Assembly (NCBI GenBank): GCA_000934665.2
Contig: KZ538210.1
Span: 62,001-99,790 of the forward strand
Reading direction: 5' to 3'
Origin: Catajapyx aquilonaris
Taxonomy: Eukaryota
Length of the DNA: 37,790 nucleotides
The notes below the pieces were generated by a model, which was given only the letters and a program-made list of their open reading frames with translations, ran no database searches and was not told where the DNA came from. Made by a program: the position numbers and the translations under genes. Shown piece after piece: positions 28,301-30,027 of this stretch (position 1 is its first letter; each line of letters begins with the position of its first letter).

Positions 28301-29686
28301 TTACTGACCAACAGTAATTACATGTGGCTTAAATTCAACAAGAAAACGTTTAAGCTTGTCCAACCACTTTTGACCAGCACTTTCTCCAGCTGGCTCTTCA
28401 TTTATTGTCAGACGTTGGAGCTCCTTCATTACCGTTTTCACATAAGCTGGCCTTTTCTTTCCAGTTCCTTGAAGCAGATAGGAGCAGATCGCCTTATCTA
28501 CCATGACACCAACATCCTGGCCAGGAATGATCACAAACTGAGTGTTTGGCCACCATCGACACCTATCTGGAACCCACAAGTCCTTCCGGATGGAGTTCAA
28601 GTGCCTATCCAGGGCTTCACGACGTAACCCAGATGCCAGTTGTGACCAGCCATCTCTGCTGGCCGAATTGGAGGGAAAGTCCATGAATTCCATCAGCTCT
28701 CTGACATGTCCAGTTGATTTGTCATCACCATCATCTACACCACTGTCAGGATTCTCGGCCCTCTGGAGAACAAATGTGCTTGATGGATCCAAGTGAATTA
28801 GCTGTCGCAAGCAGGACTGGATAAGGTCCATCCTGTCTGGGAAATTCTGCTTCAGAAATTCCAGGTATATAGTCCATGCGGTGAGGCTCTCTGGACACGA
28901 CTCATTAATGTATCCACTCAGGATGTTCAAAGACTCCTCTGGGTTGTGAGTAGCCATTAGCATTTCAACCAGCTGCATCCAGTACGGAAAATCACCCAAA
29001 CATTCATCTGCCGAGTACCAGTCAAGCATTGCTTTTTCAAGACTGGAATGAATCCTGTGCATTTCGATGTCCTCAACATCTTCAGACACGCGCCTGGTCC
29101 GTTTCCATCTGCAGAACCGAATACATTGATCCAATACAGACAGCAGCATCCAAATCCTCTGCTTCTTTATGGTAATTTGTGTCCTGTCACGATCCTCTCT
29201 ACGTCTCAACAGCTCCAGGGCCCTGTCAGTCTGTCCTGACGTCATCCAGTGAACTACTGCATCCAGTAACATCTCCTTGGGCCATAGTTTCTTGCATGGA
29301 TACAAGTCCCTTACAAATTCATCCAGTGCTGCAACATTTGACCTAGGGTGGTTCAGGTGCAGTATAAATCCTATTTTCCATATTGCTGGTGCCATGTGAA
29401 TTGGGTTGTCCAGGATGAACAACAAAAGTGTGGCCAGCCGAGTCCAATTGTGCTGCTGTATGCACAGCACCACATCTTCTTTAATTCCTGAGAGGCTTCC
29501 AATCGGATGTGGTTTGAGAAGGGCTGATCCCCATGGAAAAAGGTGCGGAAAAGTCTTTGGTAGTTGCGACACTGCTTTTGATTGCTGCGACACTTCTTTC
29601 ATCCGGTGCAATGTAGTAAGCCGAACTTTCTTCAACCACTTGTGCCTGAAGCCTCGCCCTAACGGATCCCACTTTGGTTTCCCCAT
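28301..29686 (-). CDS. TAF1A: RNA polymerase I SL1 subunit TAF1A (TAFI48), intronless, 461 aa
   Basis: Single ORF from ATG 29686 (GCAATGG). Motifs QHNW..LA, AIWKIGFILHLNHPRSN (compare human IWKLGSEILFYHPKSN), LVEML...A..YLEFLKQ and DRCRWWPNTQF. Minus-strand AATAAA at 28031-28026. Confidence 0.85.
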   Translation of the reverse strand: MGKPKWDPLGRGFRHKWLKKVRLTTLHRMKEVSQQSKAVSQLPKTFPHLFPWGSALLKPHPIGSLSGIKEDVVLCIQQHNWTRLATLLLFILDNPIHMAPAIWKIGFILHLNHPRSNVAALDEFVRDLYPCKKLWPKEMLLDAVVHWMTSGQTDRALELLRRREDRDRTQITIKKQRIWMLLSVLDQCIRFCRWKRTRRVSEDVEDIEMHRIHSSLEKAMLDWYSADECLGDFPYWMQLVEMLMATHNPEESLNILSGYINESCPESLTAWTIYLEFLKQNFPDRMDLIQSCLRQLIHLDPSSTFVLQRAENPDSGVDDGDDKSTGHVRELMEFMDFPSNSASRDGWSQLASGLRREALDRHLNSIRKDLWVPDRCRWWPNTQFVIIPGQDVGVMVDKAICSYLLQGTGKKRPAYVKTVMKELQRLTINEEPAGESAGQKWLDKLKRFLVEFKPHVITVGQ

Positions 29687-29691
29687 TGCAA

Positions 29692-30027
29692 TCAATGCGA
29701 TGAGGTGTCACCTTTGGAGTCGTTCATAAAGCGCCGGAGTAGATTGTAAACATCATCGGGATTAACTTGCATGTAGAACAACTGCATCAGGTGACTGCGA
29801 AAGGTATTTCATTATTTTTCTGCACCTACATGTCAGCCTCCATATCACACTCACTGGAAAACCTCTGGATGAATAGTGAATCCTGCAGCAGCTACCAGCC
29901 TGTGCATATCCAGCTCATCCGGGCTGAGTGTCTGCTCCGCCAAGGATGTTCCCTGTGTAGAGGTGGCCCTCGGTCTCCGGGTAGCCCGCTCCCCCTTCTC
30001 ATTACCCTTATTGGAACGAGACGCCAT
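29692..30027 (-). CDS. MZT2: Mitotic spindle organizing protein 2 (MOZART2/GCP8, gamma-TuRC subunit), 91 aa, 2 exons
   Basis: Exons 30027-29855 and 29794-29692 flank a 60-nt intron (CA|GTGAGT...TTTCGCAG|T): MASRSNKGNEKGERATRRPRATSTQGTSLAEQTLSPDELDMHRLVAAAGFTIHPEVFHHLMQLFYMQVNPDDVYNLLRRFMNDSKGDTSSH*. Aligns to the MZT2 core LSTEEMELYELAQAAGGAIDPDVFKILVDLLKLNVAPLAVFQMLKSM. Confidence 0.85.

Follow-up and report, generated by a model that had tools for sequence, protein, structure and literature searches.

The minus strand of a 37,790-nucleotide (nt) stretch of contig KZ538210.1 from Catajapyx aquilonaris (referred to here as the window, to whose whole length all coordinates apply) carries two neighbouring open reading frames (ORFs) that form a plausible dicistronic pair and probably share one mRNA. 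The upstream ORF, of 91 codons, is probably MZT2, the gene of a gamma-tubulin-complex microprotein, while the downstream ORF, of 461 codons, is identified by its similarity to known proteins as TAF1A, an initiation factor of RNA polymerase I (Pol I). The locus had previously been described from its letters alone as a probable bicistronic MZT2-TAF1A mRNA, and all the coordinates of that sequence-only reading were borne out on the minus strand by a reading of the sequence together with the ORF listing, made with the standard code. The arrangement is known from this one species, and its parts are as follows.

30028-30103, minus strand: 5' leader of the MZT2-like gene, 76 nt, containing no ATG; the second record of the RNA contigs described below begins at 30103, with no extra letters
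29855-30027, minus strand: MZT2-like exon 1, with its ATG at 30027-30025; codons 1-57 plus two bases of codon 58
29795-29854, minus strand: 60-nt GT-AG intron of the MZT2-like gene (GTGAGT...CGCAG), exactly the bases that are missing from the RNA contig
29692-29794, minus strand: MZT2-like exon 2, comprising the third base of codon 58 and codons 59-91, ending in CAT TGA (TGA at 29694-29692)
29687-29691, minus strand: spacer TTGCA, 5 nt, between the MZT2 stop and the TAF1A ATG, as read in the sequence
28301-29686, minus strand: intronless TAF1A ORF, 461 amino acids (aa) plus TAA, opening with ATG GGG AAA at 29686 and closing with TAA at 28303-28301
29659-29711, minus strand: candidate fusion intron, 53 nt (GTGACA...GTTAG), whose removal would give an in-frame fusion of 537 aa; retained in the RNA contig
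29480-29485, minus strand: ATTAAA hexamer, about 200 nt inside the TAF1A ORF, from the hexamer scan
28285-28305, minus strand: possible 3' end, with the TAA stop overlapped by AGTAAA (28305-28300), a variant poly(A) hexamer, and the end of an RNA contig at 28285
30104-30716, no strand assigned: probable divergent promoter region of 613 base pairs (bp), between the contig ends at 30103 and 30717, with a CpG observed/expected ratio of 1.05

By these coordinates the upstream ORF amounts to 91 aa after splicing, with 58 codons up to the donor and 33 more in exon 2, and an in-frame TAA lies 11 codons 5' of its ATG. The donor of the 60-nt intron is the consensus CA/GTGAGT at 29855/29854, its 3' end reads ...TTTCGCAG at 29795, and read-through of this in-frame intron meets five stops. 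The TAF1A frame is closed upstream by a TGA at 29707-29705, which leaves seven sense codons between that TGA and the ATG (stop-to-stop ORF 28301-29707). As had been claimed from the letters, no AG is found between the in-frame TGA and the ATG, the nearest one 5' of the ATG ending at 29712, so that no exon can splice into that interval. The 5-nt spacing, likewise found as first described, leaves no room for a promoter or a poly(A) site, and therefore any MZT2 mRNA must extend into TAF1A.

Evidence at the RNA level was obtained from the public run X1, which contains 88% of the sampled words of the window and was taken as RNA-derived because its contig lacks exactly the 60-nt intron. Its contigs were aligned to positions 26500-32000. 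Contig record 2 (1311 nt, 0 mismatches) maps to 30103-29855 and 29794-28733, skipping precisely the 29795-29854 interval that had been proposed as an intron. It starts 76 nt 5' of the MZT2-like ATG, contains the leader and both MZT2 exons, crosses the stop/start junction and extends 954 nt into TAF1A, and in this way the predicted continuity of RNA from MZT2 into TAF1A was supported by one spliced contig. Among the contigs listed, this intron (CT..AC on the plus strand, that is, GT..AG) is the only joint in the region, and it is real. Record 1 covers 28673-28285 and ends 16 nt past the TAA, about 15 nt past AGTAAA, although a contig end alone does not prove a poly(A) site. TAF1A is thus covered by RNA at 29686-28733 and 28673-28285, with a gap at 28674-28732 among the contigs listed. 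No cover was found at 30180-30547 and 26500-28155, which makes the block of transcription match the unit of the two ORFs in extent; it must be noted that these two stretches and the gap at 28674-28732 are not evidence of silence. The mean depths of records 1 and 2 were similar (9.26 and 8.44, respectively), which is only a weak hint since there is one depth figure per contig. These data suggest to us that both ORFs may be carried by one and the same mature mRNA.

The identification of the downstream ORF as a full-length, very divergent TAF1A is firm at the level of sequence comparison. The ORF matched the Pfam family TAF1_subA (PF14929) with 80.1 bits and an E value of 2.7e-22, well over the gathering cut-off of 31.8 bits, its residues 76-411 being aligned to positions 3-358 of the 365 in the profile. 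When 1.84 billion representatives were searched exhaustively with HMMER, 16 proteins were obtained at E<=1e-3, the best ones molluscan (snail), with an E value of 1.7e-13 and only 27% identity; PF14929 was present in all 16, and none of them carried a MOZART2 domain. Eight of these homologues were looked up: six are named TAF1A (from snail, frog, Aplysia, abalone and others), one is an uncharacterised Limulus protein and one is unnamed. A word-indexed protein search with TAF1A gave no homologue. When the ORF was aligned with 10 of its homologues, the 11 sequences were collinear over their full length and shared 14 invariant columns, and in all of them conservation begins near residue 70, after an unconserved N-terminal stretch of similar size. 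This collinearity indicates that the TAF1A ORF is complete and needs no upstream exon. As a TAF1A, the protein would belong to SL1, the selectivity factor of Pol I.

The identity of the upstream ORF is less certain. The earlier assignment of both genes was supported, but to different degrees: TAF1A, with its 80.1 bits, is firm, while MZT2 is probable, with a confidence that we would call good but not high. The family searches were run on each exon separately. Exon 1 matched Pfam MOZART2 (PF12926) with an E value of 0.021 and 15.1 bits, below the cut-off of 23.3 bits, MOZART2 being the only Pfam family that matched it at E<=1. Of the 91 profile positions, the match spans 25-51, and its end is exactly that of the exon, as would be expected if it continued after splicing. 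In a comparison of exon 1 with all PDB chains (E<=10), human MZT2A/B accounted for three of the four matches (E 0.2-0.24), the aligned positions being equivalent (aa 30-58 versus 29-57). Additionally, the spliced product of 91 aa has the same length as the Pfam MOZART2 model, a size that fits MZT2, which is a small protein attached to the N-terminal helical domain of GCP2 within the gamma-tubulin ring complex. Exon 2 alone matched no Pfam family even at E 10 and, among PDB chains, gave no MZT2 and one unrelated match, eIF-1A (E 1). A word-based homologue search with exon 1 found nothing, and the ESM Atlas returned nothing usable for it. According to reviews, MZT2 has been reported only from deuterostomes (PMC7416306; PMC6281477) and Drosophila is reported to be without it (PMC7416306). 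In any case, the problem of how TAF1A is translated is the same even if the name MZT2 is wrong.

With respect to translation, the contrast between a weak MZT2 start and a strong TAF1A start, already drawn from the letters, held on inspection: the MZT2 ATG lies in GTCTGG/ATGG (T at -3, G at +4) and the TAF1A ATG in ATTGCA/ATGG (G at -3, G at +4). The argument that internal ATGs speak against simple leaky scanning was also upheld. Nine ATGs precede that of TAF1A in the spliced RNA, the MZT2 ATG included, so that the TAF1A AUG is the tenth, and two of the nine (30002 and 29907) have G at -3, which makes leaky scanning unlikely. None of these upstream AUGs shares the frame of TAF1A, and none of the nine ORFs that they open extends past 29692, for which reason a restart at 29686 is geometrically possible. 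A short stop-to-start distance is reported to favour reinitiation (PMC11291117). A frameshift fusion of the two ORFs was also considered and rejected, as no slippery X XXY YYZ run was found by reading between 29704 and 29692. Rfam gave no matches in the whole window.

The reading that we prefer, and hold tentatively as falling somewhat short of an even chance, is that one dicistronic RNA of about 1.76 kb arises from the CpG-rich region upstream and that TAF1A is made from it by termination-reinitiation. Both ORFs would be transcribed from the CpG-rich region 5' of the MZT2-like gene, and the spliced RNA would consist of the 76-nt leader, the 91-codon ORF, the 5-nt spacer, the 461-codon TAF1A ORF and, at its 3' end, a very short tail. 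Ribosomes scanning in the normal way would translate the MZT2-like ORF, the one nearer the cap, and those that finish at its stop would restart with low efficiency at the AUG located 5 nt downstream, in a termination-reinitiation that does without a recognisable tethering motif of viral type. A low yield of TAF1A could suffice, given that a Pol I initiation factor is presumably needed in small amounts. The stricter proposal, that TAF1A is made only from the dicistronic mRNA, by restart 5 nt past the 91-codon MZT2 ORF and without either spliced-leader resolution or a viral-type motif, seems to us rather unlikely.

Several observations weigh against the preferred reading. Reinitiation after an ORF of 91 codons is normally inefficient. 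The calicivirus-type reinitiation motif has the core UGGGA, complementary to 18S rRNA; this core is absent upstream of the restart AUG, and its one occurrence is on the far side, 15 nt 3' of the A that opens the AUG. The sequence flanking the junction (201 nt, 29600-29800) folds no better than shuffled sequences (z = -0.56). To these must be added the sub-threshold score of exon 1, the lack of any relevant match for exon 2 and the fact that the HMMER search found no relative closer than 27% identity. At the level of the RNA evidence, de Bruijn (k-mer) contigs join overlapping transcripts, the CpG ratio rises at the junction, and Drosophila melanogaster offers an unfavourable base rate; these last three points bear directly on the alternative that survives best.

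In this alternative, which is a real possibility although clearly below an even chance, there would be two overlapping units: an MZT2 mRNA with TAF1A as its 3' untranslated region (UTR), terminating either close to the ATTAAA hexamer (29485) or where the TAF1A mRNA also terminates, and a shorter mRNA for TAF1A, starting inside MZT2 (in the intron or in exon 2), both of them having been merged by the assembler. Overlapping transcripts are inseparable in contigs, which give no transcription starts, ends or abundance along a gene and from which minor forms are dropped. As a contig can show neither a single molecule, nor a transcription start, nor translation, a TAF1A-specific start inside MZT2 stays a strong rival. 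With nine AUGs ahead of that of TAF1A, the long RNA is a poor template for this protein. The CpG observed/expected ratio is 0.85 in the 200-nt bin 29600-29799, against 0.37 and 0.45 in the bins beside it, which hints weakly that an unmethylated start region may lie inside the unit. After the MZT2 stop the hexamer scan found, in order, ATTAAA (29485), AATAAA (28406) and AGTAAA (28305); the first of them, the sole common hexamer (AATAAA/ATTAAA) found for a possible short MZT2-only mRNA, could end such an mRNA. In Drosophila, only 45 of 159 dicistronic pairs are seemingly exclusively dicistronic, while the other 114 also have monocistronic transcripts for at least one gene (PMC4528330), a base rate which favours alternatives to an exclusively dicistronic TAF1A. 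Against an internal start, the contigs listed show no contig end, branch or loose end inside the MZT2 gene, with the caveat that contigs drop minor forms; no TATA-like motif was found between 29687 and 30103, the only TATAA being at 30386; and the similar depth of the two records argues weakly in the same direction.

It is improbable that the upstream ORF is not MZT2 at all and is no more than one among the upstream ORFs of a TAF1A 5' leader that is long and spliced. The 15.1 bits of exon 1 against the 23.3 required, the irrelevance of what exon 2 alone matched and the empty word and Atlas searches would all fit this explanation. It is opposed by MOZART2 being the sole Pfam match of exon 1 at E<=1, by the three MZT2A/B structures among four PDB matches, aligned at equivalent positions, and by a match that reaches the exon edge in a gene whose splicing keeps a frame of 91 codons, the length of the Pfam model.

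Operon-like processing is very improbable. It would have the primary transcript either kept whole as MZT2 mRNA or trans-spliced to a spliced leader at the AG ending at 29712 to give a monocistronic TAF1A mRNA with a leader of 25 nt. An AG does lie 25 nt 5' of the TAF1A ATG, TAF1A is intronless and its 3' tail is very short; in addition, the restriction of MZT2 to deuterostomes in the reviews, together with fast-evolving proteins (NUP205, 31% identity), would fit a tunicate-like lineage. That AG, however, belongs to the coding part of MZT2, and the tract preceding it is poor in pyrimidines (0.55 over 20 nt). No leader letters are attached to the contig 5' ends at 30103 and 30717, and the contigs listed have no loose end near 29712, a weak argument because contigs are concerned, and the genes are not packed operon-style, as NUP205 starts about 1.8 kb past the TAF1A stop.

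We give the same very low standing to the explanation that the MZT2 3' UTR carries the TAF1A ORF untranslated, as a passenger, for instance an intronless retrocopy, with the working TAF1A elsewhere. The ORF is indeed intronless among neighbouring genes that have introns, and it is the lowest PF14929 scorer of the TAF1A proteins seen (80 bits, versus 92-403 bits for the 16 homologues). Nevertheless, it keeps 461 codons open, the other two frames containing 26 and 27 stops and its own only the terminal one, and it shares the 14 columns invariant in all 11 aligned sequences. Moreover, no poly(A) remnant follows its stop, and other proteins of the same genome are also very divergent, NUP205 among them. 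Finally, an MZT2-TAF1A fusion protein of 537 aa, which removal of 29711-29659 would produce in frame and which the sequence-only reading had named as what would refute it, is hardly credible, because record 2 runs continuously across the 53 nt and retains them, the 60-nt intron being the only listed joint, because the donor GTGACA and the acceptor are weak by eye, and because the MOZART2 domain is absent from the 16 TAF1A homologues.

The CpG observed/expected ratio of 1.05 in 30104-30716 contrasts with 0.42 in the TAF1A ORF, and the layout between 30103 and 30717 looks like a divergent promoter. Local ratios reach 1.54 at 27600-27799 and 1.27 at 30400-30599, while gene bodies show 0.18-0.47, a pattern that suggests a methylated genome with unmethylated islands. 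On the plus strand, a gene divergent from MZT2 has a first exon of 150 nt (30717-30866) spliced over about 5.6 kb to an exon at 36502-37020, which starts at the ATG of a 172-aa ORF with a DUF4817 helix-turn-helix domain and an acidic tail rich in Lys and Gly. The RNA contig of this gene is about 10 times deeper than those of MZT2/TAF1A. In its large intron, 31591-31865 is covered by many short, high-depth RNA contigs, each with 4-7 differences and loose ends on both sides, and is probably a transcribed multi-copy repeat.

Downstream of TAF1A and on the same strand lies NUP205 (minus strand, about 19100-26470), which starts near 26450-26470, about 1.8 kb from the TAF1A stop. It has very large exons (657 and 334 aa) and introns of about 115-120 nt by eye, and is 31% identical to insect and vertebrate NUP205 alike; the ESM Atlas gave only generic Nup205/Nup188 clusters for a piece of it. 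Between TAF1A and NUP205, at about 26880-27000 on the minus strand, a stretch of about 45 nt (cgccaaactcacaatg..gccagcccgtgta) was seen by eye to occur twice, the copies being near-identical and about 60 nt apart. Elsewhere in the window, a TDP-43 (TARDBP) homologue is located on the plus strand at 4370-4825 and 8874-10163. One of its exons carries the TDP-43 N-terminal domain (PF18694, E 1.3e-34), preceded in the same open frame by a long run of Glu codons, and a large 3' exon contains part of an RRM and a Gly-rich tail. An exon of a spermidine/spermine synthase (PF01564, E 1.5e-40) lies at 15059-15499 on the minus strand. Short runs of N occur at about 4170 and 31110 (22 N in 31000-31199), inside G- or C-rich simple sequence.

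If one mRNA serves both genes, this locus would be a cellular case in which ribosomes restart past a spacer of 5 nt once a long upstream ORF has been read. Restart with such spacing has been well studied in viruses and is poorly documented for animal genes, so the pair would provide a compact natural test case. If TAF1A were made only in that way, how much of this Pol I initiation factor is produced would depend on translation of a microprotein of the gamma-tubulin complex. That microtubule nucleation and rRNA synthesis are functionally linked is pure conjecture, suggested by adjacency in this one genome. Should the identification of MZT2 be correct and the organism not be a deuterostome, the range of MZT2 would extend beyond the lineage given in the reviews. 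The locus is also a warning for annotation, since a pipeline limited to a single coding sequence for each transcript will lose one of the two, the 91-codon gene or TAF1A.

With respect to what is already described, the MZT2 and TAF1A pair was not found in full-text searches of the literature. A scan of metagenome contigs with a single-protein query gave 45 pattern matches, none of them a relative. Two unrelated ORFs on one animal RNA are a known kind of arrangement, of which the MZT2/TAF1A pair is probably an instance and, as far as found, new to print.

Among the known systems, termination-reinitiation through a termination upstream ribosome-binding site (TURBS) occurs in caliciviruses and influenza B. 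The likeness lies in an ORF 1 stop and an ORF 2 start within a few nt of each other (5 nt here) after a long ORF 1, and the difference in that here there is neither an upstream UGGGA nor excess structure and the gene is cellular, not viral. A TURBS of viral type was accordingly rejected, the only UGGGA being 15 nt downstream and the fold z being -0.56. Operons without intercistronic space are known from tunicates and, as SL1-type operons, from C. elegans. In both cases, as in this locus, genes on the same strand follow each other essentially without a spacer and the downstream gene is intronless, but here the spacer contains no acceptor, and the first AG met on going back from it already belongs to the coding sequence of the upstream gene. 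A spliced-leader operon was also rejected, with no AG in 29711-29687 and no leader letters on the contig ends, the latter being a weak point because it comes from contigs.

The polycistronic loci of green algae resemble the pair in having a small ORF 1 with a weak start context, a strong ORF 2 context and very short or overlapping spacers, and they differ, apart from being algal and not animal, in that few or no AUGs precede ORF 2, compared with nine here (PMC11291117). In those bicistrons leaky scanning was demonstrated, and one added AUG sharply lowers the output of ORF 2 (PMC11291117), which together with the nine AUGs found here makes the algal mechanism unlikely. A leaky-scanning bicistron of this type was therefore set aside, although the weak context of ORF 1, with T at -3, does fit it.

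The closest comparison is with the dicistronic genes of Drosophila melanogaster, of which FlyBase holds 159 pairs, such as stoned and Adh/Adhr (PMC4528330); in view of this figure, the earlier statement that bicistronic mRNAs are rare in animals was too strong. The fly differs from the present case in that MZT2 is reported as lacking there (PMC7416306), and the RNA is known here from contigs. In Drosophila, as would hold for the locus described, two unrelated ORFs lie on one processed RNA without resolution by a spliced leader, and the downstream ORF needs a non-standard start.

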